A stretch of 39,763 bases of DNA from Mobula birostris. Its lineage: Eukaryota. The stretch's first letter is position 1, and the number at the start of each line of letters is the position of its first letter. The notes below the pieces were generated by a model, which saw only the letters and a list, made by a program, of their open reading frames with translations, was not told where the DNA came from and did no database searches. The translations under genes and the position numbers were made by a program. The stretch lies in assembly GCF_030028105.1 (NCBI RefSeq), contig NC_092384.1, forward strand, positions 12,860,316 to 12,900,078, given 5' to 3'. Positions 800 to 35,557 of the stretch are shown here, piece by piece.

Positions 800-1914
800 T
801 ATCCTCTGAGTATGAAGATCAAATTTTTCAATACGTTATAATCAATTTAACATTGAGGAACCATTTAGAATTGCAATGGACATCACAATGGCATGAGAGG
901 GTAACCGGCCAATGTTGACTGGAAAAGGACAATAGAGAGAAGAACAGCAGTGTAGCAATGGCTGAAGCTTCTGCAAAAAAGAGAGAAGTGCAAGAAAGAT
1001 ATATCCCAAATAAGAAGAAATTTTCGAATGGAAGAAGGACACCACTGTAGCTGACAAGTGAAGTCAGACCAAAGTAAAAGCAAAAGAGAGGGCATACAAG
1101 GAAGCCAAAGGTAGTGGGAAGATACATGATCAGGGAGCTTTTAAAAACCTGTAAAAGGAAACTAAAAAGGTCATTGGGAAGGAAAAGATGAATTATGAGA
1201 GGAAACTGGTGACTAATATCAAAGAATATACCAAAAGCTTTTTTAAGTATATAAAGGGTAAAAGAGAGTTGAGGGTAGATATAGGACCAATAGAAAAAGG
1301 CGCTCGAGATATTGTAATGAGAGATGCAGAGATGGCAGAGGAACTGAATGCGCATTTTGCCACAGTGGAAGACGTCTGCAGTATACCGGACATTCAACAG
1401 TGTCAGGGAGGTGAAGTATGTGCAGTGAAAATTACGACTAAGGTGCTCATGAAGCTTAATGGTCTGAGGGTGGATAAATCTCCTGGACCTGATGGAATGC
1501 ACACTCATGTTCTTAAGGAAGTAGCTGGAGAGACTGTTGCGGCATTAACAATGATCTTTCAAAAATCGATAGGTTCTGGCATTGTAGCAGATGACTGGAA
1601 AATTGCAAATATTACTCTGCTATTTATGAAGGGTGGGAGGCAGCAGAAAGGAAACTATGGACCTGCTAGCCTGACATCAGTGGTTGGGAGGTTGTTGGAA
1701 TCAGTTGTTAGGGATGAGATTGTGGAGTACCTGGAGACACATGACAAGATAGGCCAAAGCCAGCAATGTTTCCTGAAAGAAAAATCCTGCCTGACTAACC
1801 CACTGTATTTTTATTAAGAAATTACAAGCAGGGTAGACAAAGGAGATGTAGTGGATGTGGTGTACTTGGGGTTGCAGAAGACCTTTGACAGGGTGCCGCA
1901 CTTGAGGCTGCTTA
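800..1914 (+). mobile_element. Older CR1 LINE (host A), 5' part: degenerate ORF2 tether and RT N-terminus
   Basis: ORF 1188-1817 has KSPGPDGMH, NYGPASLTS and QSQQCF; the sequence continues as decayed DVVYLxxQKxFDxVPHLRLL up to the insertion point. Confidence 0.85.
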
Positions 1915-3385
1915 TGAGGACTGGAGGGTGGCTAATGTAACCCTGCTTTTTAAAAAAGGAGGGAAAGAGAAACCGGGGAATTATAGACCGGTTAGCCTAA
2001 CATCGGTGGTGGGGAAAATGCTAGATTCAGTTATCAAAGATGTGATAAAAGCACATTTGGAAAGTGGTGAAATCATCGGACAAAGTCAGTATGGATTTGT
2101 GAAAGGAAAATCATGTCTGACGAATCTCAGAATTTTTGAGGATGTAACTAGTAGAGTGGATAGGGAAGAACCAGTGGATGTGGTATATTTGGATTTTCAG
2201 AAGGCTTTTGACAAGGTCCCACACAGGAGATTAGTGTGCAAACTTAAAGCACACGGTATTGGGGGGTAAGGTATTGATGTGGATACAGAATTGGTTGGCA
2301 GACAGGAAGCAAAGAGTGGGAATAAACGGGACCTTTTCAGAATGGCAGGCAGTGACTAGTGGGGTACCGCAAGGCTCAGTGCTGGGACCCCAGTTGTTTA
2401 CAATATATATTAATGACTTAGATGAGGGAATTAAATGCAGCATCTCCAAGTTTGCGGATAACACGAAGCTGGGTGGCAGCGTTAGCTGTTCGGAGGATGC
2501 TAAGAGGATGCAGGGTGACTTGGATAGGCTAGGTGAGTGGGCAAATTCATGGCAGATGCAACTTAATGTGGATAAATGTGAGGTTATCCACTTTGGTGGC
2601 AAAAACAGGAAAACAGATTATTATCTGAATGGTGGCCGATTAGGAAAAGGGGAGGCGCAACGAGACCTGGGTGTCATTATACACCAGTCATTGAAAGTGT
2701 GCATGCAGGTACAGCAGGCGGTGAAAAAAGCGAATGGTATGCTGGCATTCATAGCAAGATGATTTGAGTACAGGAGCAGGGAGGTACTACTGCAGTTGTA
2801 CAAGGCCTCGGTGAGACCACACCTGGAGTATTGTGCGCAATTTTGGTCCCCTAATCTGAGGAAAGACATTCTTGCCATAGAGGGAGTACATAGAAGGTTC
2901 ACCAGGTTGATTCCTGGGATGGCAGGACTTTCATATGATGAAAGACTGAATATCGACTAGGCTTATACTCTCTGGAATTTAGAAGATTGAGGGGGGATCT
3001 TATTGAAACATATAAAATCCTAAAGGGATTGGACAGGTTAGATGCAGGAAGATTGTTCTCTATGTTGGGGAAGTCCAGAACAAGGGGTCACAGTTTGAGG
3101 ATAAAGGGGAAGCCTTTTAGGACCGAGATTAGGAAAAACTTCTTCACACAGCGAGTGGTGAATCTGTGGAATTCTCTGACACAGGAAGTAGTTGAGGCCA
3201 GTTCATTGACTATATTTAAGAGGGAGTTAGAAATGGCCCGTGTGGCTAAAGGGATCAGGGGGTATGGAGGGAAGGCTGGTACAGGGTTCTGAGTTGGATG
3301 ATCAGCCATGATCATATTGAATGGCGGTGCAGACTTGAAGGGCCAAATGGCCTACTCCTGCACCTATTTTCTATGTTTCTATGTT
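1915..3385 (+). mobile_element. Young CR1 family Y, 5'-truncated copy nested in host A
   Basis: Closely matches 11645-12860 (YRPVSLTS, YLDFQKAFD, GVPQGSVLGP, FAD) with a few frameshifts and stops; complete 3' end with (TTCTATGT)n tail at about 3369-3386. Confidence 0.95.
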
Positions 3386-4463
3386 TAACAAGATAAGAGC
3401 CCATGGAATTACAGAGTTTCTAGTATGGGTGGAGCATTGGCTGATCAGCAGAAAACAGAGAGTGGGAATAAAGGGATCTTATTCTGGCTGGCTGCTGTTC
3501 CAGTGGAGTTCCACATGTGTTAATGTTGGGATCACTGCTTTTTACAATGTATATCTATGGAATTAATGGATTTGAGGCTTAATTTGTCGATGATACAAAG
3601 ATAGGTGGAGGAGCGGGTATTGTTGAGGAAACAGAGAGTTTACAGAGAGACGTGGATAGGGAATGGGCAAAAAGTGGCAAATTGGCAAATGGAATACAAT
3701 ATTGGAAAGTGTATAGTCACGCACTTTGGTAGAAGAAATAAATGGGCGGTCTTTTATTTAGATGGGGAGAGAATTCAAAATTCAGAGATTCAAGGGACTT
3801 GGGAGTTCTTGTGCACGATCCCCTAATTGGTTGAGTCGGTGCTGAAGAAGGCAAATGCAATGTCGGCATTCATTTCTGGAGGTACGGAATATAAGAGCAG
3901 GGATATGATATTGAGGCTCTATAAGGCAGTCGTGAGACTACACGGAGTATTGTGTGCAGTTTTGCGCTCCTAATTTTAGAAAGGATATACTGACATTGGA
4001 GAGGGTTAAGAGAAGATTCACAAGAATGAAAGGGTTACCATATGAGGAACGTCTGACAACTCTTGGACTGACAGGAGAATGGGGGGGGGCTCTCATAGAA
4101 ACATTCTGAATATTAAAAGGCCTGAACAGATAAGATATGGCAAAGCTATTTCCCATGGTAGGGGAGTCTAGGTCAAGAGGGCATGACTTCAGGATCAAAG
4201 GATGTCCATTTAGAAATGAGATGCAGTGAAATTATTTTAGCAGAGGGGGGTAAACCTGTCAAATTTGTTGCCACAAACGGCTGTGGAAGCCAGGTCACTG
4301 AGTGTGTTTAAGGCAGAGATAGATAGGTTCCTGATTAGCTAGGGCATCAAAGGGTATGGGGAGAAAGCAGGGGACTGGAAGAATTGGATCAGCCCATGAC
4401 TGAATGGCAGAACATTCGGTGGGCCGAATGACCTCTTTCTGCTCCTATATCTATTGGTCTTAT
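3386..4463 (+). mobile_element. Older CR1 LINE (host A), 3' part
   Basis: Resumes the interrupted RT reading (HLRLL|NKIRAHGI, KQRVGI, WQMEYN) and ends with a CR1-type 3' UTR near 4460. Confidence 0.85.
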
Positions 4464-7544: not shown

Positions 7545-8633
7545 AACAGAACATAGAACACAGAAAACCTACAGCACAATACAGGCCCTTTGGCCCACAA
7601 TGCTATGCCGAACATGTATTTAAGTTAGAAATTACCTCGGGTTACCCATAGCCATCTATTTTTTGAAACTCCATGTACCTTTCCAGTAGTCTCTTAAAAG
7701 ACCTATCATATCCGCCTCCACCACCATCACAGGCAGTCCATTCCATGCAATCACCACTCTCTGCATAAAAAAACTTACCCCTGGCATCCCCTCTGTACCT
7801 GCTTCCAAGCACCTTAAAACTGTGCTCTCTCATGTTAGCCATTTCAGCCCTGGGAAAAAGCTTCTGACTATCCACAGGATCAATGCCTCTCATCATCTTA
7901 TACACCTCTATCAGGTCACCTCTCATCCCCCAAGGAGAAAAGGCCAAGTTCACTCAACCTATTCTCATGGCATGCTCCCCAATCCAGGCAACATCCTTGT
8001 AAATATCCTCTGCACCCTTTATATAGTTTCCACATCCTTCCTGCAGTGAGGCGCCAGATCTGAATACAGTATTCCAAGTGGGGTGTGACCAGGATCCTAC
8101 ATGGCTGTAACATTACCTCTCGCCTCCTAAACTGAAGCAAAGTATTCATTAAGCATTTCTGCTATCTCCTCTGGTTCCATACACACTTTTCCACTGTCAC
8201 ACTTGATTGGTTCTATTCTGTCACATCTTATCCTCTTGCTCTTCACACACTTGTAGAATGCCTTGGGGTTTTCCTGAATCCTGCTCGCCAAGGCCTTCTC
8301 ATGGCCCCTTCGAGCTCTCTTAAATTCATTGTTAAGCTTCTTTCTGCTAGCCTTATAATGTTCTAGATCTCTATCATTACCTAATTTTTTGAAACTTCAT
8401 AAGTTTTTCTTTCCTTCTTGACTAGATTTTCAACAGCCTTTGTACACCACGGTTCCTGTACCCTACCATCCTTTCCGTCTCATTGGAACGTACCTATGCA
8501 GAATGCCACGCAAATATCCCCTGAACATTTGCCACATTTCTGCTGTACATTTGTCTGAGAACATCTGTTCCCAATTTATGCTTCCAAGTTCCTGCCTGAT
8601 AGCCCCCTACTCCAATTAAACACTTTCCTAACT
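7545..8633 (-). mobile_element. Degenerate CR1 LINE with internal deletion
   Basis: Minus-strand ORFs give MRGDLIEVYKMMRGID and PHLEYCIQIW; tether-region sequence at 8160-8633 joins the C-terminal region directly; short-repeat tail near 7545-7562. Confidence 0.85.
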
Positions 8634-8650: not shown

Positions 8651-8886
8651 GTTCTGAGAGGCAGGACTGCGCAGGCGTGTGACGTCGGGCAGTGCAGCGC
8701 GGCAGATTTAAAAGGGCAGACATCCTGCTTCGGGTTTGATTCGAAGAAGGAGTCTGAGAGTCTGAGTGGGAGTGCCGAGAAAGACATTTTTGAAATTTCG
8801 TTATTTTTTTTCTCCAACGGCGTTCTGAGAGGCGGGACTGCGCAGGCGTATGACGTCGGGCTGTGCAGCGTGGCAGATTTAAAAGG
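8651..8886 (+). promoter_or_regulatory. Duplicated about 65-bp module in the CR1 5' UTR, putative internal Pol II promoter
   Basis: Direct repeats 8651-8715 and 8822-8886, each with GACTGCGCAGGCGT, TGACGTC (CRE-like) and TTTAAAA. The repeat is seen; promoter function is inferred. Confidence 0.5.
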
Positions 8887-9048
8887 AACAGAGCCTCATA
8901 GAGCGGGCAGCGGAGTTTGCGGGCTGCAGAGTGAGCCGGGAGCAGAGTGAAGACTTAAGGGCTTCGGCTCAACGGGCTTAGGTGGAAACAGGCGAGGCGA
9001 GGGAGGTTTGGCATTCATTTTCTGTTGTTATTTGAGGAGAGGGGCAGT

Positions 9049-9984
9049 ATGAGTGTGAGGGCAGTTTGCTGTTCTCGGTGTCAGATGTGGGAGGGCCTGG
9101 AGTCTACAAGCCTCCCGGACGTCTACATCTGCGCCAAGTGCATCGAGATGCAGCTCCTTAGGGACCACGTTACGGAACTGGAGCTGCAGCTCGATGACCT
9201 TCGTCTGGTCAGGGAGAGTGAGGAGGTGATAGAGAGGAGCTGCAGGCAGGTGGTCACGCCGGGGCCACGGGAGGCAGACAAGTGGGTCACGGTTAGGAGG
9301 GGGAAGGGGAAAGGTCAGGTAATAGGGAGTACCCCGGTGGCTGTGCCCCTTAACAACAGGTACTCCTGTTTGAGTACTGTTGGGGGGGACAGCTTTCCCG
9401 GGAGAAGCGACAGTGGCCGTGCCTCCGGCACAGAGTCCGGCCCTGTAGCTCAGAAGGGTAGGGCAAGGAAGAGGAGGGCAGTTGTGATAGGGGACTCGAT
9501 AGTAAGGGGGTCAGATAGGTGATTCTGTGGACGCAGTCCAGAGACCCGGATGGTAGTTTGCCTCCCTGGTGCCAGAGTCCGGGATATTTCTGATCGTGTC
9601 CAAGATATCCTGAAGTGGGAGGGTGAGGAGCCAGAGGTCGTGGTACATATAGGTACCAATGACATAGGTAGGAAAAGGGATGAGGTCCTGAAAGGAGAAT
9701 ATAGGGAGCTAGGAAGGGAGTTGAGAAAAAGGACCGCAAAGGTAGTAATCTCAGGATTACTGCCTGTGCCACGCGACAGTGAGAGTAGGAATGCAATGAG
9801 GTGGAGGATAAATGCGTGGCTGAGGGATTGGAGCAGGGGGCAGGGATTCAAGTTTTTGGATCATTGGGACCTCTTTTGGCGCAGGCGTGACCTGTACAAA
9901 AAGGACGGGTTGCACTTGAATCCCAGGGAGACCAATATCCTGGCAGGGAGATTAGCGGGGGCTACTGAGGTGACTTTAAACTAG
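9049..9984 (+). pseudogene. CR1 ORF1p (CxxC...CxxC zinc finger, leucine zipper, SGNH esterase) with one in-frame stop
   Basis: ATG 9049; CSRC...CAKC, LLRDHVTELELQLDDL, GDSIV, GTNDI, DGLH. TGA at 9520-9522 splits ORFs 9025-9522 and 9550-9984, which are in the same frame. Confidence 0.9.
9975..9981 (+). promoter_or_regulatory. Candidate -1 ribosomal frameshift heptamer U_UUA_AAC at the ORF1/ORF2 overlap
   Basis: ORF1 ends ACT TTA AAC TAG; the -1 frame (TTT AAA CTA GAA TGG TTG...) is the ORF2 frame and is open from 9969. Confidence 0.5.
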
Positions 9985-9989
9985 AATGG

Positions 9990-12923
9990 TTGGGGGGTGG
10001 GAATCAAATTAAAGAGGCTAGGCGTGAGGAGGTTAGTTCACTACAGGGGGATGGGAACCAGTGCAGAGTGGCAGAAGGGTGTAAAGTGAGGGTAGAAACA
10101 AAAAGTACTATGGAGAAAAGTAAAAGTGGCAGGCCGACAAATCCAGGGCAAGCATTAAAAAGGGCCACTTTTCAGCATAATTGTATAAGGGCTAAGAGAG
10201 TTGTAAAAGAGCGCCTGAAGGCTTTGTGTGTCAATGCAAGGAGCATTCGTAATAAGGTGGATGAATTGAAAGTGCAGATTGTTATTAATGATTATGATAT
10301 AGTTGGGATCACAGAGACATGGCTCCAGGGTGACCAGGGATGGGAGCTCAACGTTCAGGGATATTCAATATTCAGGAGGGATAGACATGAAGGAAGGGGA
10401 GGTGGGGTGGCGTTGCTGGTTAAAGAAGAGATTAACGCAATAGAAAGGAAGGACATAAGCCGGGAAGATGTGGAATCGATATGGGTAGAGCTGCGTAACA
10501 CTAAGGGGCAGAAGATGCTGGTGGGAGTTGTGTACAGGCCACCTAACAGTAATAGTGAGGTCGGAGATGGTATTAAACAGGAAATTAGAAATGTGTGCAA
10601 TAAAGGAACAGCAGTTATAATGGGTGACTTCAATCTACATGTAGATTGGGTGAACCAAATTGGTAAAGGTGCTGAGGATGAGGATTTCTTGGAATGTATG
10701 CGGGATGGTTTTTTGAACCAACATGTCGAGGAACCGACTAGAGAGCAGGCTATTCTGGACTGGGTTTTGAGCAATGAGGAAGGGTTAATTAGCAATCTTG
10801 TCGTGAGAGGCCCCTTGGGTAAGAGTGACCATAATATGGTGGAATTCTTCATTAAGATGGAGAGTGACATAGTTAATTCAGAAACAAAGGTTCTGAACTT
10901 AAAGAGGGGTAACTTTGAAGGTATGAGACGTGAATTAGCTAAGATAGACTGGCAAATGACACTTAAAGGATTGACGGTGGATATGCAATGGCAAGCATTT
11001 AAAGGTTGCATGGATGAACTGCAACAAATGTTCATCCCAGTTTGGCAAAAGAATAAATCAAGGAAGGTAGTGCACCCGTGGCTGACAAGAGAAATTAGGG
11101 ATAGTATCAATTCCAAAGAAGCAGCATACAAATTAGCCAGAGAAAGTGGCTCACCTGAGGACTGGGAGAAATTCAGAGTTCAGCAGAGGAGGACAAAGGG
11201 CTTAATTAGGAAGGGGAAAAAAGATTATGAGAGAAAACTGGCAGGCAACATAAAAACGGACTGTAAAAGCTTTTATAGGTATGTAAAAAGGAAAAGACTG
11301 GTAAAGACAAATGTAGGTCCCCTGCAGGCAGAAACAGGTGAGTTGATTATGGGGAGCAAGGACATGGCAGACCAATTGAATAATTACTTTGGTTCTGTCT
11401 TCACTAAGGAGGACATAAATAATCTTCCAGAAATAGTAGGGGACAGAGGGTCCGGTGAGATGGAGGAACTGAGCGAAATACATGTTAGTAGGGAAGTGGT
11501 GTTAGGTAAATTGAAGGGATTGAAGGCAGATAAATCCCCAGGGCCAGATGGTCTGCATCCCAGGGTGCTTAAGGAAGTAGCCCAAGAAATAGTGGATGCA
11601 TTAGTGATAATTTTTCAAAACTCGTTAGATTCTGGACTAGTTCCTGAGGATTGGAGGGTGGCTAATGTAACTCCACTTTTTAAAAAAGGAGGGAGAGAGA
11701 AACCGGGGAATTATAGACCGGTTAGCCTAACGTCGGTGGTGGGGAAACTGCTGGAGTCAGTTATCAAGGATGTGATAACAGCACATTTGGAAAGTGGTGA
11801 AATCATCGGACAAAGTCAGCATGGATTTGTGAAAGGAAAATCATGTCTGACGAATCTCATAGAATTTTTTGAGGATGTAACTAGTAGAGTGGATAGGGGA
11901 GAACCAGTGGATGTGGTATATTTGGATTTTCAGAAGGCTTTTGACAAGGTCCCACACAGGAGATTAGTGTGCAAACTTAAAGCACACGGTATTGGGGGTA
12001 AGGTATTGGTGTGGGTGGAGAGTTGGTTAGCAGACAGGAAGCAAAGAGTGGGAATAAATGGGACCTTTTCAGAATGGCAGGCAGTGACTAGTGGGGTACC
12101 GCAAGGCTCAGTGCTGGGACTCCAGTTGTTTACAATATATATTAATGACTTGGATGAGGGAATTAAATGCAGCATCTCCAAGTTTGCGGATGACACGAAG
12201 CTGGGTGGCAGTGTTAGCTGTGAGGAGGATGCTAAGAGGATGCAGGGTGACTTGGATAGGTTGGGTGAGTGGGCAAATTCATGGCAGATGCAATTTAATG
12301 TGGATAAATGTGAAGTTATCCACTTTGGTGGCAAAAATAGGAAAACAGATTATTATCTGAATGGTGGCCGATTAGGAAAAGGGGAGGTGCAACGTGACCT
12401 GGGTGTCATTATACACCAGTCATTGAAAGTGGGCATGCAGGTACAGCAGGCGGTGAAAAAGGCGAATGGTATGCTGGCATTTATAGCGAGAGGATTTGAG
12501 TACAGGAGCAGGGAGGTACTACTGCAGTTGTACAAGGCCTTGGTGAGACCGCACCTGGAGTATTGTGTGCAGTTTTGGTCCCCTAATCTGAGAAAAGACA
12601 TCCTTGCCATAGAGGGAGTACAGAGAAGGTTCACCAGATTGATTCCTGGGATGGCAGGACTTTCATATGAAGAAAGAATGGATGAACTGGGCTTGTACTC
12701 GTTGGAATTTAGAAGATTGAGGGGGGATCTGATTGAAACGTATAAGATCCTAAAGGGATTGGACAGGCTAGATGTAGGAAGATTGTTCCCAATGTTGGGG
12801 AATTCCAGAACAAGGGGTCACAGTTTGAGGATAGAGGGGAAGCCTTTTAGGACCGAGATTGTCAGGGCCCTAGCAGAGATATCTAAAACATCCTTAGTGA
12901 CAAGAGAGCTACCAGAGGATTAA
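9990..12923 (+). CDS. CR1 ORF2p: APE endonuclease plus reverse transcriptase, with a chimeric last 20 aa
   Basis: 977-aa open frame. EN motifs NARSI, GITETW, VYRPP, GDFN, LDWVL, SDH; RT motifs PGPDG, YRPVSLTS, QHGF, YLDFQKAFD, GVPQGS, FADD. First in-frame ATG is at 10110. Confidence 0.95.
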   Translation: MGGGNQIKEARREEVSSLQGDGNQCRVAEGCKVRVETKSTMEKSKSGRPTNPGQALKRATFQHNCIRAKRVVKERLKALCVNARSIRNKVDELKVQIVINDYDIVGITETWLQGDQGWELNVQGYSIFRRDRHEGRGGGVALLVKEEINAIERKDISREDVESIWVELRNTKGQKMLVGVVYRPPNSNSEVGDGIKQEIRNVCNKGTAVIMGDFNLHVDWVNQIGKGAEDEDFLECMRDGFLNQHVEEPTREQAILDWVLSNEEGLISNLVVRGPLGKSDHNMVEFFIKMESDIVNSETKVLNLKRGNFEGMRRELAKIDWQMTLKGLTVDMQWQAFKGCMDELQQMFIPVWQKNKSRKVVHPWLTREIRDSINSKEAAYKLARESGSPEDWEKFRVQQRRTKGLIRKGKKDYERKLAGNIKTDCKSFYRYVKRKRLVKTNVGPLQAETGELIMGSKDMADQLNNYFGSVFTKEDINNLPEIVGDRGSGEMEELSEIHVSREVVLGKLKGLKADKSPGPDGLHPRVLKEVAQEIVDALVIIFQNSLDSGLVPEDWRVANVTPLFKKGGREKPGNYRPVSLTSVVGKLLESVIKDVITAHLESGEIIGQSQHGFVKGKSCLTNLIEFFEDVTSRVDRGEPVDVVYLDFQKAFDKVPHRRLVCKLKAHGIGGKVLVWVESWLADRKQRVGINGTFSEWQAVTSGVPQGSVLGLQLFTIYINDLDEGIKCSISKFADDTKLGGSVSCEEDAKRMQGDLDRLGEWANSWQMQFNVDKCEVIHFGGKNRKTDYYLNGGRLGKGEVQRDLGVIIHQSLKVGMQVQQAVKKANGMLAFIARGFEYRSREVLLQLYKALVRPHLEYCVQFWSPNLRKDILAIEGVQRRFTRLIPGMAGLSYEERMDELGLYSLEFRRLRGDLIETYKILKGLDRLDVGRLFPMLGNSRTRGHSLRIEGKPFRTEIVRALAEISKTSLVTRELPED

Positions 12924-13054
12924 AGGATAGCCAATGCTGTTCCACTGTTTAAAAAAGACTCTGAACAGAATCTAAGAAATTATAGGCCTGTGAGTCTGAC
13001 ATCAATTGTGGGAAAGTTATTGGAATGTATTCTATGGGACCGGGTATATAAGTA

Positions 13055-13959
13055 ACACACACAAAATGCAGGTGGAACTCAGCAGGCCAGGCAGCATCTA
13101 TGGAAAAGTGCAAAGTCAATGTTGCGGGCCAAGACCCTTCAGCAGGACTGGAGAAAAAGAACAGGAGTAAGGGGGTGGGGAGGAGAGGGACAAACACGGG
13201 GTGATAGGTGAAACTGGGAGGTGGGGAGTGGTGAAGTAAATAGTTGTGAAGTTGATTGATGAAAGCTATACAGGGATGGAGTAGGGGGAATCTATTAGGA
13301 TTCTAATAAGAATCTAATAGCAAGAAAGAAAAAGAGAGGGGAGCACCAGAGGGAGGCAGTAGACAGGTAAGGTGAGAGAGGGAAATAATAATGGGGAATA
13401 GAGAAGAGGGGATCATCACTGGAAATTCGAGAAATTGATATTCATGCCATCAGTTTAGACGCTACCCAGGCAGAATATAAGGTGTTGCTCTTCCAACCTG
13501 AGTGCGGTTTCATTGCGACAGTAGAGGAGGCCATGGATGGACATGTCAGAATGGGAATGGGAAGTGGAATTAAAATTGGTGGGCACTGGGAGAGAAATGG
13601 GAACATGCTCAGGTTGGAGGAGCAACACTTTATATTCCATCAGGGTAGTTTACAACCTTCTATTCTTTCCTATTTGATTTCCCCTTCTCCAGCCCTGCAT
13701 CTCTTTCACCAATCAACTTCCCAACTTTTTACTTTACCCCTCCCTTCCCACAGTTTGACTTATCACCTTGTGTTGCCCTTTACCATCCCCCCACCCTCTT
13801 ATTCTGACTCCATATCTTTTTTCCTCTGTTGAAGGGTCTCGGCCTGAAATGGTGACTGTACTCTTTTCCGTAGATGTTGCCTGGCCTACCGAGTGTCTCG
13901 AGCATTTTGTGTATGTTACTTGGATTTCCAGCATCTTCAGATTTTCTCCTGTTTGTTGA
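13055..13959. mobile_element. Fold-back (inverted) PLE-derived insertion with a 10-bp TSD
   Basis: Left arm is a minus-strand PLE end including the GIY-YIG C-terminal-like peptide FNSTSHSHSDMSIHGLLYC...RLEEQHLIF; right arm 13608-13959 is the same end on the plus strand; TATATAAGTA at 13045-13054 and 13960-13969. Confidence 0.85.
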
Positions 13960-14431: not shown

Positions 14432-16073
14432 TAGTATGGCGTTTGACAAGTTCCCACTTGTCAGGAAAGCTCAGTTGCTTGGCACTCAGGATAAGGTAGT
14501 AAATTTTCTTTGTGGGAGAAGCCAGAGAGTGGTAGTGAAGGGTTGCTTCTCTGACTGGGGCCTGTTAGTCATGGTGTGCCTCAAGGATCTCTGCTGGGTC
14601 CTTTGTTGTTTATCATCTAAATCAATAATCTAAATGATAATATGATTATCAACTTTGCAGATGATGCCAAGATTGGAGGTGTTGTGGACAGTAAGGAAGG
14701 TTATCATAGCTTGCAGAGGGATTTGCACCAACTGGAAAAATACACTGAAAAATGACAGATGGAATTTAATGCAGACAAGAGTGAGGTTTTGAACTTTGGT
14801 AGGACCAACCAGGGAAGGTCTTACACAGTGAACGGTAGGGCTCTGAGGAGTGTGGCAGAACAAAGGGATCTGGGAATACAGGTTAATATTTTGTTGAAAG
14901 TGGTGTCACAGCTACATAAGGTTGTAAAGAAAGCTTTCGGCACATTGGCCTTCATAAATCAATGTATTTGGTATTGGAGATGGGAGGCTGTGTTGAAGTA
15001 GTTTTAGATATTGCTGAGGCCTAATTTGGAGTACTGTGTGCAGCTTTGGACACCTACCTACAGGAAAGATGTAAACACGGCTGAAGGAGTACAGAAAAAT
15101 TCACAAGGATATTCAGGTCCTGGAGGACCTGAGTTGTAAGGAAAGATTGAATAGGGCTAGGATTGCATTCCTTGCAACATAGAAACTTGAGGGGAGATAT
15201 GATAGAGGTATACAAAATTATGAGGGGTATAGATAGGGTCATTGCAAGCAAGCTTTTCACTGAGGTTGGGTGGGACTACAACCAGAGGTCATGGGTTGAG
15301 GGGGAAAGGTGAAAAGTTTAAGGGGAACATGAGGAGAAACTTCTTCAGTCAGAGGGTAACAAGAGTGTGGATTGGGCTGCTGACACAAGTGGTGCATGGG
15401 AGCTTGACTTCAATGTTTAAGAGATGTTTGGATAGGTACATGGATAGTAGGGATATGGAGGGTTATGGTCCTGGTGCAGGTCAGTGGTAGTAGGCAGCTT
15501 AAATTCTTTAAGCAGGTACTATATGGGTCAAAGGGCCTCTTTCTCTGTTGTACTTCTCTAAGACTCTTTGAACTTGTGTGCATTTTTACGGTTATCACCC
15601 ATGTCTATCAAGGCCAGCATTTATTGCACATGTCTAGTTATCCCAATAATGTGTTGTTGTGCCTTTGTAAACTGTCAGAATTTATTACAATAACTGTTAG
15701 AACTGTATAGCTACATAAATCACTTATCAAAGACTATTGAGAGTGAAACATGATGGTGTGGAGCTGGAGACATGAATTAGTTATTTCCATACAAGGCCAG
15801 TTACTTTTGGTATTTAAAAAACTACAACTGATTTAAGGTCAGCTGCACTGGTGTTGGAGATTTTTCCCCTGTTGGCAATTACCTATTAGATGTGAACATC
15901 ACTAGGGAAGTGCTGCTAGTGGGTGGACAGGGATATTAACAATACCAAGTTGAAGATATTTAGCTATTTTCTTTATTCAAAATAGATGCCATAAATGACT
16001 GTAGTTCTCCAGACTGGAATGTATCAATACATTGTTCTACCAATTTCAGACAAGAGACCAACACATCTTTTAA

Positions 16074-26398: not shown

Positions 26399-26900
26399 AC
26401 CATATAACATATAACAATTACAGCACGGAAACAGGTCACCTTGGCCCTTCTAGTCCATGCCGAACTCTTACTCCCACCTAGACCCACCGACCTGCACTCA
26501 GCCCATAACCCTCCATTCCTTTCCTGTCCATATAGCTGTCCAATTTAACATTAAATGACAACACCAAACCTGCCTCAACCACTTCTGCTGGAAGCTCGTT
26601 CCACATAGCTACCACTCTCTGAGTAAAGAAGTTCCCCCTCATGTTACCCCTAAACTTTTGCCCTTTAACTCTCAACTCATGTCCTCTTGTTTGAATCTCC
26701 CCCACTTTCAATGGAAAAAGCCTATCCACGTCAACTCTATCTATCCCCCTCATAATTTTAAATATCTCTATCAAGTCCCCCCCTCAACCTTCTACGCTCC
26801 AAAGAATAAAAACCTAATTTGTTCAACCTTTCTCTGTAACTTAGGAGATGAACCCAGGCAACATTTTAGTAGATCTCCTCTGTACTCTCTCAATTTTATT
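26399..26900 (-). mobile_element. CR1 host C, 3' part
   Basis: ORF 26478-26774 (KIMRGIDRVD, RGNFFTQRVV); tail CATATAACATATAAC at about 26401-26415. Confidence 0.9.
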
Positions 26901-29082
26901 AGAAACATAGAAACATAGAAAATAGGAGCAGGTGTAGGCCATTCGGCCCTTCGATCCTGCACCGCCATTCAGTATGATCATGGCTGGCCATCCAACTCAG
27001 AACCCTGTACCTGCCTTCTCTCCATACCCCCGATCCCTTTAGCCGCAAGGGCCATATCCAACTTCCTCTTAAATATAGCCAATGAATTGGCCTCAACTGT
27101 TTCCTGTGGCAGAGAATTCCACAGATTCACCACTCTCTCTGTGAAGAAGTTTTCCTCATCTCGGTCCTAATAGGCCTCCCCTTTATCCTTAAACTGCGAC
27201 CCCTCGTTCTGGACTTCCCCAACATCGGGAACAATCTTCCTGCATCTAGCCTGTCCAATCCCTTTAGAATTTTATACGTTTCAATAAGATCCCCCCTCAA
27301 TCTTCTAAATTCCAGTGAGTATAAGCCCAGTCAATCCAGTTTTTCTTCATATGAAAGTCCTGCCATCCCAGGAATCAATCTGGTGAACATTCTTTGTACT
27401 CCCTCTATGGAAAGAATGTCTTTCTTCAGATTAGGGGACCAAAACTGCACACAATACTCCAGGTGTGGTCTCACCGAGGCCTTGTACAACTGCAGTAGAA
27501 TCTCCCTGCTCCTGTACTCGAATCCTCTTGCTATGAATGCCAGCATACCATTCGCCTTTTTCACCGCCTGCTGTATCTGCATGCCCACTTTCAATGACCC
27601 GTGTACAATGACACCCAGGTCTCGTTGCAACTCCCCTTTTCCTAATCAGCCACCATTCAGATAATAATTTGTTTTCCTGTTCTTGCCACCAAAGTGGATA
27701 ACCTCACATTTATCCACATTAAATTGCATCTGCCATGAATTTGCCCACTCACCTAACCTATCCAAGTCATCCTGCATCCTCTTGGCATCCTCCTCACAGC
27801 TAACACTGCCGCCCAGCTTCGCATCATCTGCCAACTTAGAGACGCTGCATTTAATTCCCTCATCTAAGGCATTAATATATATTGTAAACAACTGGGGTCC
27901 CAGCACTGAGCCTTGCGGTACCCCACTAGTCACTGCCTGCCATTCTGAAAAGGTCCTGTTTATTCCCACTCTTTGCTTCCTGTCTGCCAACCAATTCTCT
28001 ATCCACATCAATGCCATACCCCCAATACCATGTGCTTTAAGTTTGCACACTAATCTCCTGTGTGGGACCTTGTCAAAAGCCTTCTGAAAATCCAAATATA
28101 CCACATCCACTCCCATCCACTCTACTAGTTACATCCTCAAAAATTTCTATAAGATTCGTCAGACATGATTTTCCTTTCACAAATCCATGCTGACTTTGTC
28201 CGATGATTTCACCTCCTTCCTAATGTGCTGTTATCACATCTTTGATAAATGACTCTAGCATTTTCCCCACCACTGATGTTAGGCTAACCGGTCTATAATT
28301 CCTTGGTTTCTCTCTCCCCGCTTTTTTAAAAAGTGGGGTTACATTAGCCACCCTCCAATCTTCATGAACTAATCCAGAATTTAAAGCATTTTGAAAAATT
28401 ATCACTAATGCATCCAATATTTCTTGGGCTACTTCCTTAAGCACTCTGGGATGCAGACCATCTGGCCCTGGAGATTTATCTGCAGTTAATCCCTTCAATT
28501 TACCTAACACTACTTCCCTACTAACATGTATTTCCCTCAGTTCCTCCATCTCACTACACCCTCGATCCCCTACTATTTCCTGAAGATTATTTATGTCCTC
28601 CTTAGTGAAGACAGAACCAAAGTAGTTATTCAATTGGTCTGCCATGTCCTTGCTCCCCATGATCAATTCACCTGTTTCTGACTGTAAGGGACCTACATTT
28701 GTCTTAACCAATCTTTTTCTTTTTACATATCTATAAAAGCTTTTACAGTCAGTTTTTATATTCCCTGCCAGCTTTCTCTCAACCTTTTTTCCCCTTTCTT
28801 AATTAAGCCTTTTGTCCTCCTCTGCTGGACTCTGAATTTCTCCCAGTCCTCAGGTGTGTCGCTTTTTCTGGTTAATTTGTATGTTTCTTCTTTGGAATTG
28901 ATACTATCCCTAATTTCCCTTGTCAGCCACAGGTGCACTACCTTCCCTGGTTTATTCTTTTGCCAAACTGGGATGAACAATTGTTGTAGTTCATCCATGC
29001 GATCTTTAAATGCTTGCCTTTGCATTTCCACCGTCAATCCTTTAAGTGTCATTTGCCAGTCTATCTTAGCTAATTCATGTCT
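26901..29082 (-). mobile_element. Young CR1 family Y, 2.2-kb 5'-truncated copy nested in host C
   Basis: Colinear reverse complement of about 10925-12860 plus the 3' end; (AGAAACAT)n tail from 26901; TTATT duplicated at 26896-26900 and 29082-29086. Confidence 0.95.
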
Positions 29083-29675
29083 TATTGACATCCTTCCTAT
29101 AATACGGTGACCAGAACTGTACATAATACTCCAAATTTGGCCTCACCAATGCCTTATACAATTTCAACATTACATCCCAACTCCTATACTCAATGCTCTG
29201 ATTTATAAAGGCCAGCATACCAAAAGCTTTCTTCACCACCCTATCCACATGAGATTCCACCTTCAGGGAACTATGCACCATTATTCCTAGATCCCTCTGT
29301 TCTACTGCATTCTTCAATGCCCTACTATTTGCCATGTATGTCCTATTTTGATTAGTCCTACCAAAATGTAGCACCTCACATTTTTCAGCATTAAACTCCA
29401 TCTGCCATCTTTCAGTCCACTTTTCTAACTGGCCTAAATCTCTCTGCAAGCTTTGAAAACCTACTTCATTATCCACAACTCCACCTATCTTCGTATCAAC
29501 TGCATACTTACTAATCCAGTTTACCACCCCATCATCCAGATCATTAATATATATGACAAATAACATTGGACCCAGTACAGAACCCTGAGGCACACCGCTA
29601 GTCACCGGCCTCCAATCTGACAAACAGTTATCCACCACTACTCTCTGGCGTCTCCCATCCAGCCACTGCTGAATC
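29083..29675 (-). mobile_element. CR1 host C, 5' part (RT)
   Basis: ORF 29075-29701: QRVVV...SGVPQGSVLGPMLF...YAVD...RPNLEYYVQFW; continues into 26895 once the insert is removed. Confidence 0.9.
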
Positions 29676-34149: not shown

Positions 34150-35557
34150 CTAAAGAATCACTTCCATCATCATGAAATGTTTCAAGAGGCTCGTCATGAG
34201 ACACATAAAGACCCTGCTGCCCCTCTCACTGGACCCCCTGCAGTTCATGTATCATCCCAACTGCTCAACAGACGACACCATCACCACCACCTTCCACCTG
34301 GACAAAAAAGAAACATACGTCCGAATGCTGTTAATAGACTTCAGTTCAGCATTCAACACAATCATTCCTCAGCACCTAACTGGAAAGCTGAAACTGCTGG
34401 ACCTGAACACCTCCCTCTGCAACTGAACCCTAGTCTTCCTGACTGGGAGACCTCAGTCAGTCCGGATTGGGAGCAGCATCTCCAACACCATCACACTGAG
34501 TACGGGGGCTCCCCAGGGCTGTGTGTTCAGTCCACTGCTGTTCACCTTGCTGACCCACAACTGTGCAGCAATACACAGCTCGAATCACATCATCAAGTTC
34601 ACCGATGACACAACCATGGTGGGTCTGATCAGCAAGAATGACGAGTCAGAATACAAAAAGGAGGTGCAGCGGCTAACAGACTGGTACAGAGCCAACAACC
34701 TGTCTCTGAATGTGAACAAAACAAAAGAGATGGTTGTTGACTTCAGGAGAGCACGGAGCGACCACTCTCCGCTGAACATTGACGGCTCCTCCCTTGAGAT
34801 CGTTAAGAGCACCAAGTTTCTTGGTGTTCACCTGGTGGAGAATCTCACCTGGTCCCTCAACACCAGCCCCATAGCCGAGAAAGCACAGGCTGAGAAAAGT
34901 CCATCTCCCACCCTCCATCCTCACCACATTCTACAGGGGATGTATGGAGAGCATCCTGAGCAGCTGCATCACTGCCTGGTTCGGGAATTGCACCGTCTCG
35001 GATCGCAAGACCCTGCAGCGGATAGTGAGGTCAGCTGAGAAGATCATCGGGGTCTCTCTTCACACTATTACAGACATTTACACCACATGCTGCACCCGCA
35101 AAGTGAACAATATTGTGAAGGAGCCCACGCACCCCTCACACAAACACTTCTCCCTCCTGCCATCTGGCAAAAGGTACCGAAGCATTCGTGCTCTCATGAC
35201 CAGACTGTGCAACAGTTTCTTCCCCCAAGCCATCAGACTCCTCAATACTCAGAGTCTAGACTGATATCTACATCATTTATTATTATATTGTAATTTGTCC
35301 GCTACTGTGTCTATTGTCTTGTTTATTAATTATTGTACTGCCCTGCACTGTTTTGTGCACTTTATGTAGAGGTCTGTAGGCTAGTGCAGTTTTTATGTTG
35401 TTTTACATAGTTTAGTGTAGCCTTGTGCTGTCTCACATAGTCTAGTGTAGTTTTGTGTTGTTTCATGTAGCACCAGGGTCCTGGAGGAATGGTGTTTAGT
35501 TTTTACTGTGTACTGTACCAGCAGCTTATGGTCAAAATGGCAATAAACTTGACTTGA
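34150..35557 (+). mobile_element. Rex1/Babar LINE, 5'-truncated
   Basis: [55 protein letters not shown]; 3' UTR ending CAATAAACTTGACTTGA. Confidence 0.9.

Follow-up and report, generated by a model that had tools for sequence, protein, structure and literature searches.

How the second open reading frame (ORF) of a long interspersed nuclear element (LINE) is translated is described as unclear in passages of two earlier papers (PMC5009743, PMC3708506), and the locus considered here raises the question anew. The window analysed is a stretch of 39,763 nucleotides from Mobula birostris (NC_092384.1, positions 12,860,316 to 12,900,078, forward strand) and it carries a copy of the LINE CR1. In vertebrates other than mammals CR1 is a major repeat, and this genome contains about 23,000 matches to the end of its ORF1. 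In this copy ORF1 ends GTG ACT TTA AAC TAG, which places TTTAAAC in the X_XXY_YYZ register of the zero frame with the stop codon directly behind it; the −1 frame is open from 9969 to 12923, from the heptamer into the downstream ORF, and its first ATG is at 10110. A preliminary description had pointed out these features and all of their coordinates hold (Table 1). It had proposed that a −1 frameshift fuses ORF1 to ORF2, and the comparative results given below agree with that proposal at each point it named. The conservation of a virus-type slippery sequence at the end of ORF1 suggests that ribosomes slip back by one base, as in retroviruses, to make the ORF2 enzyme, and we put the probability of programmed −1 frameshifting in esterase-ORF1 CR1 LINEs, yielding a fusion of ORF1 with endonuclease (EN) plus reverse transcriptase (RT), at roughly three in four. 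The heptamer junction is real, is conserved far beyond chance and is best read as a programmed −1 frameshift site.

A lone TTTAAAC is commonplace (nine in the window, both strands counted), so the significance of the heptamer has to come from its conservation alone. Among the nearest 30 copies TTTAAACTAG is kept in 30, although at 98% identity this is little informative. A pattern blind to the junction, the catalytic DGLHL[N/S] motif of ORF1, gave 23,570 genome matches (854 for the control), and T TTA AAC TAR was exact in 13,003 of the 14,500 genomic ORF1 ends that encode Leu-Asn-stop at the fixed spacing, counts that are dominated by large families; the pattern DG[VI]HL, used for further ORF1 families, returned ORF2 motifs or background. 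The T_TTA_AAC-TAR end is common to 15 CR1 groups that lie about 22–60% apart in EN DNA (distances of ~0.22–0.6 between the main clusters). At the junction in 14 aligned ray representatives the residue before Leu-Asn is one of six amino acids, its codon ending in T in each case, and Leu and Asn are encoded by TTA and AAC throughout, whereas the Leu and Asn codons of the catalytic DGLHLN vary; elsewhere in these ORF1s TTA accounts for 18 of 176 Leu codons and AAC for 25 of 73 Asn codons. As the representatives in this codon control were picked for having the heptamer, it is the unconditioned counts that carry weight, namely the site in 52 of 73 copies of a sample not conditioned on it, and in 26 of 30 loci reached with distant protein queries (25 of 29 distinct places, three families).

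The linker between the shift site and EN was compared in 82 of 85 copies with both a heptamer and an EN start, hand-sorted into the 15 groups from EN clustering (three copies were left out for their large indels; of the 110 loci from which the set derives, 40 had been hand-picked from heptamer-bearing hits for diversity). Linker length is a multiple of three in 53 of the 82, and the 2,970 linker codons of these in-frame copies contain 19 stops when read in the −1 frame, as against 212 when read in the zero frame and 363 in the +1 frame. The −1 frame is fully open in 40 of the 53, and 36 have no in-frame ATG before EN. Family linkers measure 129, 132, 144, 174, 183, 198, 222 and 240 nt, with the frame kept in all. 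Of the 30 nearest copies 19 have a −1 frame that runs open as far as the EN motif, and so has L007. The heptamer, its register and the open −1 frame are thus kept across families, as the preliminary description had anticipated for a shift site, and ATG 10110 is not. That ATG marks a subfamily and not the family as a whole: of 12 copies sampled regardless of similarity four have it in frame (a fifth copy with it is frame-broken), and exact genome-wide matches to a 28-mer spanning it number 1,163 in the ATG version and 793 in an AAG version, so the window's family has spread without it. In contigs of three other organisms, taken from sequencing runs and used for variation only, AAG makes up 59%, 100% and 34% of the depth at this position. 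The linker ATG is absent from in-frame copies in 9/9 of group B144, 9/10 of D132, 7/8 of C144 and 4/4 of E129, and where it is missing no in-frame Met comes until about 135 residues into the endonuclease. In one contig of run X1 a stretch of 248 nt is absent from the linker (joint 10005–10254), and the contig probably represents a deleted genomic copy.

Beyond this genome, 30 metagenome loci were collected, of which seven contain both the end of ORF1 and EN; no CR1 was found in the viral and prokaryote contigs searched. Six of the seven are amniote-type loci (EN identity 30–36%), which we take to be bird-type, and all six have TTTAAAC-TAR with the −1 frame open into EN; one of them, L107, groups with reptile ORF1s on the esterase tree. 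The seventh, L105, is a distant CR1 with G_GGA_AAC-TAG instead, followed by 72 open −1 codons. At the protein level ORF1 ends in LN in snake, lizards, turtles, eel, sturgeon, skate, sawfish and sawshark, which bears out the suggestion in the preliminary description that amniote CR1 ORF1s end similarly (the reptile, eel and sturgeon proteins end xLN); a chimaera protein ends LNY and a Xenopus one stops short. Among 94 distant ORF1 tails 45 end in LN, nine in GN, two in KN and two in EN, and a further eight have KN at a fixed internal place. The residue before LN is compatible with the required NNT codon in 44 of the 45 tails (background, 18% incompatible residues), and LN lies 25–39 residues from the catalytic Asp. 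Focused searches gave an xGN end in 20 of 22 tails of one clade (from 39 proteins) and xKN in 96 of 104 tails of another (from 120 proteins), there followed by a hypervariable extension of about 11 residues before the stop; in these tails the residue before GN or KN is always compatible with the needed third base. The GN and KN endings are those fitting putative G_GGA_AAC or A_AAA_AAC sites. On an esterase tree that excludes the junction (FastTree only) GN, KN, EN and LN interchange within one supported clade. A passage of PMC5009743 names U_UUA_AAC, G_GGA_AAC and A_AAA_AAC among the four most shifty heptamers, and since the classes found here correspond to three of those four the switching between TTT, GGG and (probably) AAA would amount to covariation among shifty sites. 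The junction is therefore conserved beyond coding need and appears to covary among slippery heptamers, one non-TTT case being available as DNA. Six distant ORF1 proteins (P0083, P0113, P0148, P0151, P0114 and P0137) have FF, FL or GF near the end (FLGRV in P0148), which, read from the protein alone, is compatible with U_UUU_UUN or G_GGU_UUU sites.

In the mechanism that we propose, most ribosomes would read ...UUA AAC and halt at the UAG or UAA, giving ORF1p (311 aa here). In a minority the tRNA-Leu and tRNA-Asn on UUA AAC would slip to UUU AAA, decoding would resume at CUA (..T-L-N-L-E-W-L-G-G..) and an 80-codon linker would then lead into EN and RT. The resulting protein is predicted to be a Gag-Pol-like fusion about 1,324 aa long, with 311 residues from ORF1 and 1,013 from beyond it, the second figure being based on two close copies in which the −1 frame has 1,015 codons. 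The anatomy of the junction and its conservation are seen in the sequences themselves; that ribosomes slip, that a fusion protein results and that little of it is made is what we infer.

As to what might stimulate such a slip, two blocks are conserved across 22 representatives, the heptamer with the following TA and a G-box at positions 18–27, and the spacer between them is variable. The preliminary description had placed a G-run 6 nt downstream of the heptamer, and GGTTGGGGGGTGGG does begin there, at 9988, but the GG at 9988–89 is not conserved and the conserved box starts only after a 10-nt spacer. The box is found in 21 of 22 representatives (shuffle rate 0.01–0.09, with a pattern drawn from the same sequences), and position 21 is G in 22/22, GGG being used for 35 of 102 EN Gly codons; with its wobble positions fixed it is to be regarded as a nucleotide element. 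A local stem or pseudoknot was rejected as stimulator for want of a conserved fold: the window folds with z=+0.81 and z falls below −2 in only two of 66 folds. The G-quadruplex of the preliminary description is poorly supported, a three-tier form being present in 0/22, a two-tier form with loops of at least 1 nt in 13/22 and a quadruplex within the minimum free energy structure in 7/22. Long-range pairing of the G-box was likewise discarded (its best sites are about equal to those of shuffled queries), as was a C-rich site that recurs in ORF1 some 626 nt upstream and has no cognate advantage as a partner (p=0.83). The G-box thus resembles the element of protein-stimulated frameshifting in being conserved, unstructured and placed about 10 nt 3′ of the heptamer, and we infer only that the likeliest candidate stimulator is this box acting as an unstructured, protein-bound roadblock, with the adjacent stop helping; this is the most speculative part of the proposal. 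Within ORF1 the Pro codon of a conserved PLxN[RK][YF] motif (VPLNNRY, window ~9340–9360) is CCC in most ray groups, compared with 17 of 92 Pro codons elsewhere, and does not covary with the G-box.

Several observations weigh against frameshifting. No stimulatory stem or pseudoknot was found 5–9 nt downstream, where pseudoknots were not modelled explicitly. Linker ATGs are present in ray groups F183, H198, I198 and M195, and the linker frame is broken in 29 of the 82 copies. Endings other than LN, GN, KN or EN occur in 36 of the 94 distant tails (eight of these being the ones with internal KN), including the whole DGLHP clade of seven on the esterase tree, and the GN, KN and EN classes, L105 excepted, are known from protein ends alone. 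Of these points the broken frames look like decay, as both recurrent breaks tested are polyphyletic, and frame-broken sublineages were on that ground ruled out as counter-evidence: a 16-nt deletion in the I198 linker, in seven of 23 copies (L149, L208, L211, L215, L221, L223 and L225), requires six changes on the tree, and an extra G in six of 30 copies requires three, four of the six sharing a 5′ flank. The 16-nt deletion falls between two GTTGCAGTG repeats and has several independent origins.

The remaining adverse observations belong to the main rival, termination–reinitiation, in which ribosomes would terminate at UAR and begin again on a neighbouring AUG or near-cognate codon of the ORF2 frame, the conserved bases being a coupling signal and ORF2p a separate protein. 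It has precedents in the UAAUG of SART1 (in part of PMC3708506) and in the unconventional initiation of L1 ORF2 (in part of PMC5009743), and it predicts an open linker of length divisible by three just as well as frameshifting does. An in-frame AUG lies at the ORF1 stop, or 2 nt past it, in five of the six amniote-type loci (TAG, two nucleotides and ATG in L103, L104, L107 and L108), the linker ATGs of the four ray groups would serve it, and a near-cognate codon is present within −1 codons 3–10 in 13 of 15 ray representatives. Two representatives, however, have no near-cognate codon, and its position wanders in the others; an AUG in the same interval occurs in only one of the 15 (codon 8 of a frame-broken copy) and is absent from the window. 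Nor does reinitiation predict that the homotrimer XXX should switch between TTT, GGG and probably AAA, or that KN should stay fixed about 11 codons before a variable stop. We consider it improbable, though it has genuine support, and the amniote-type copies qualify the proposal of the preliminary description, and frameshifting and reinitiation may both be used in amniotes. At L119 a slippery heptamer (at 2917) stands together with a SART1-like TAATG stop–start overlap in the ORF2 frame.

It could also be argued that the conserved end reflects a protein need for C-terminal Leu-Asn, or shared ancestry, with no recoding involved. The ray groups do have a common ancestor and some other synonymous sites are fairly conserved too (His CAC in 13/14), but constraint on the protein is unable to hold TTA, AAC and the T in the third position before them fixed; the dipeptide, at its distance from the catalytic Asp, is replaced by GN, KN or EN, the NNT-compatible residue in 44 of 45 tails exceeds its background, and an intact heptamer at saturated synonymous distances in vertebrate CR1s has in part been shown, all of which makes this explanation very improbable. 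Hardly tenable, finally, is the use of an internal AUG (10110 here) through an internal ribosome entry site or a spliced or sub-genomic RNA, with the heptamer incidental or a promoter or splice signal: the 1,163 ATG matches, the four ray groups with linker ATGs and the likeness of TTTAAA to the TATA-like word of the 5′ untranslated region (UTR) speak for it, but it is already largely refuted by the ATG-less families B144, D132, C144 and E129, by AAG in 793 matches (dominant or common in the runs of three other organisms) and by the frame kept upstream of any ATG, and as the stop is TAA in eight of 22 representatives a splice signal would have no conserved AG acceptor.

The proposed −1 frameshift of CR1 would have an unusual stimulator if the G-box is one. 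It has known counterparts in coronavirus 1a/1b (U_UUA_AAC) and in retroviral gag-pol, where, as in CR1, the upstream ORF closes with an X_XXY_YYZ heptamer, the polymerase ORF is in the −1 frame and a fusion is made, predicted in the case of CR1, and in Rous sarcoma virus a stop also follows the heptamer directly. CR1 differs from them in being a non-LTR (long terminal repeat) retrotransposon, in having no pseudoknot or stem found at 5–9 nt and in that no protease domain was found in its ORFs with Pfam. [quoted passage not shown] The spacing equals that of the CR1 G-box, by analogy only, as the PRRSV motif is C-rich and has identified binding proteins whereas the G-box is G-rich and its binding protein hypothetical. 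Among LINEs, frameshifting has a precedent in the APE-type elements TRE5-A and TRE3-A of Dictyostelium, ORF2 of which is said to require a −1 frameshift in a figure legend of PMC5911963; that passage gives no heptamer, stimulator or experiment, and the elements belong to another LINE lineage with another ORF1. SART1 and mammalian L1, like CR1, have a bicistronic RNA with the problem of access to ORF2, but according to the parts of PMC3708506 and PMC5009743 concerned they use reinitiation and make a separate ORF2p, unlike the route proposed for CR1. No report of CR1 frameshifting was found among titles and abstract starts in the open full-text literature; the site may be mentioned in the first papers on chicken and turtle CR1 or in Repbase, which lie outside it. 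The word ‘frameshift’ is absent from PMC4120745 and PMC3905857.

If frameshifting is correct, the CR1 polymerase would bear ORF1 at its N-terminus, tethering EN-RT to a multimerising, membrane-binding esterase; the fusion would set stoichiometry as in Gag-Pol, CR1 ORF2 annotations that begin at the first AUG would be wrong, the stimulator would be of a new kind and host anti-frameshift factors would have a target. With a natural cassette of 60 nt the proposed frameshift is directly testable. A broader version is possible but doubtful, in which an ancient structure-free −1 signal (heptamer, 10-nt spacer and G-box), shared by esterase-type CR1 LINEs of jawed vertebrates and more distant lineages, would be activated in trans, either by ORF1p or by a host protein that binds G-runs, to give a Gag-Pol-like zinc finger–esterase–EN–RT polyprotein; were stimulation by protein confirmed, the retrotransposon that dominates in birds, reptiles and sharks would be under the control of non-viral protein-stimulated frameshifting.

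The element itself has the marks of CR1, with a zinc finger, Leu zipper and SGNH esterase in ORF1, APE endonuclease and RT in ORF2 (by Pfam) and, in nine of ten close copies, a 3′ end of short tandem TTCTATG-type repeats, not poly(A); this copy has no 3′ end of its own. The same ORF1 architecture (type IVB, zinc finger/Leu zipper plus esterase), together with an EN-RT ORF2 and a short tandem 3′ tail, belongs to CR1 subgroup 7 as described in part of PMC4120745. The closest protein match to ORF1 is a 311-aa Mobula homologue (97% identity). The copy is dead, ORF1 being interrupted by an in-frame TGA at 9520–9522 and homology to the CR1 family being lost at 12860.

Table 1. Features of the CR1 copy, in window coordinates.
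Feature	Position	Strand	Support
5′ UTR	8651..9048	+	four other copies align from 8651
ORF1, 311 codons: Cx2C-x16-Cx2C zinc finger, Leu zipper, SGNH esterase	9049..9984	+	Pfam PF13472, E=2.4e-15
Slippery heptamer U_UUA_AAC, over the ends of the Thr/Leu/Asn codons of ORF1	9975..9981	+	
ORF1 stop, directly 3′ of the heptamer	9982..9984	+	TAG/TAA in 22/22 lineage representatives
Conserved G-box, GGGGG-RW-GGG type, candidate stimulator, past a 10-nt spacer	9992..10001	+	
−1 frame linker from shift site to endonuclease; stop-depleted, family lengths differing by multiples of 3	9982..10214	+	
ATG in frame, confined to one subfamily; its sister subfamily has AAG	10110..10112	+	
ORF2: APE endonuclease (~10272-10832) and reverse transcriptase (~11691-12344)	10215..12860	+	Pfam PF03372, PF00078

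The 5′ UTR contains a 65-nt unit twice (8651–8715 and 8822–8886, 171 nt apart), which holds TGACGTC and the TATA-like TTTAAAAGG, and the extent of this repeat varies between CR1 copies. Identical 5′ flanks are shared by copies at sites megabases apart (L005, L006, L010, L015 and L016 in C17; L013, L014, L018 and L019 in C24), which are either recent segmental duplications or assembly duplicates. More CR1-like ORF2 fragments crowd the window on both strands, at 1074–4211, 7795–8603, 12840–13124, 14564–15270, 26652–29674 and 34286–34891.

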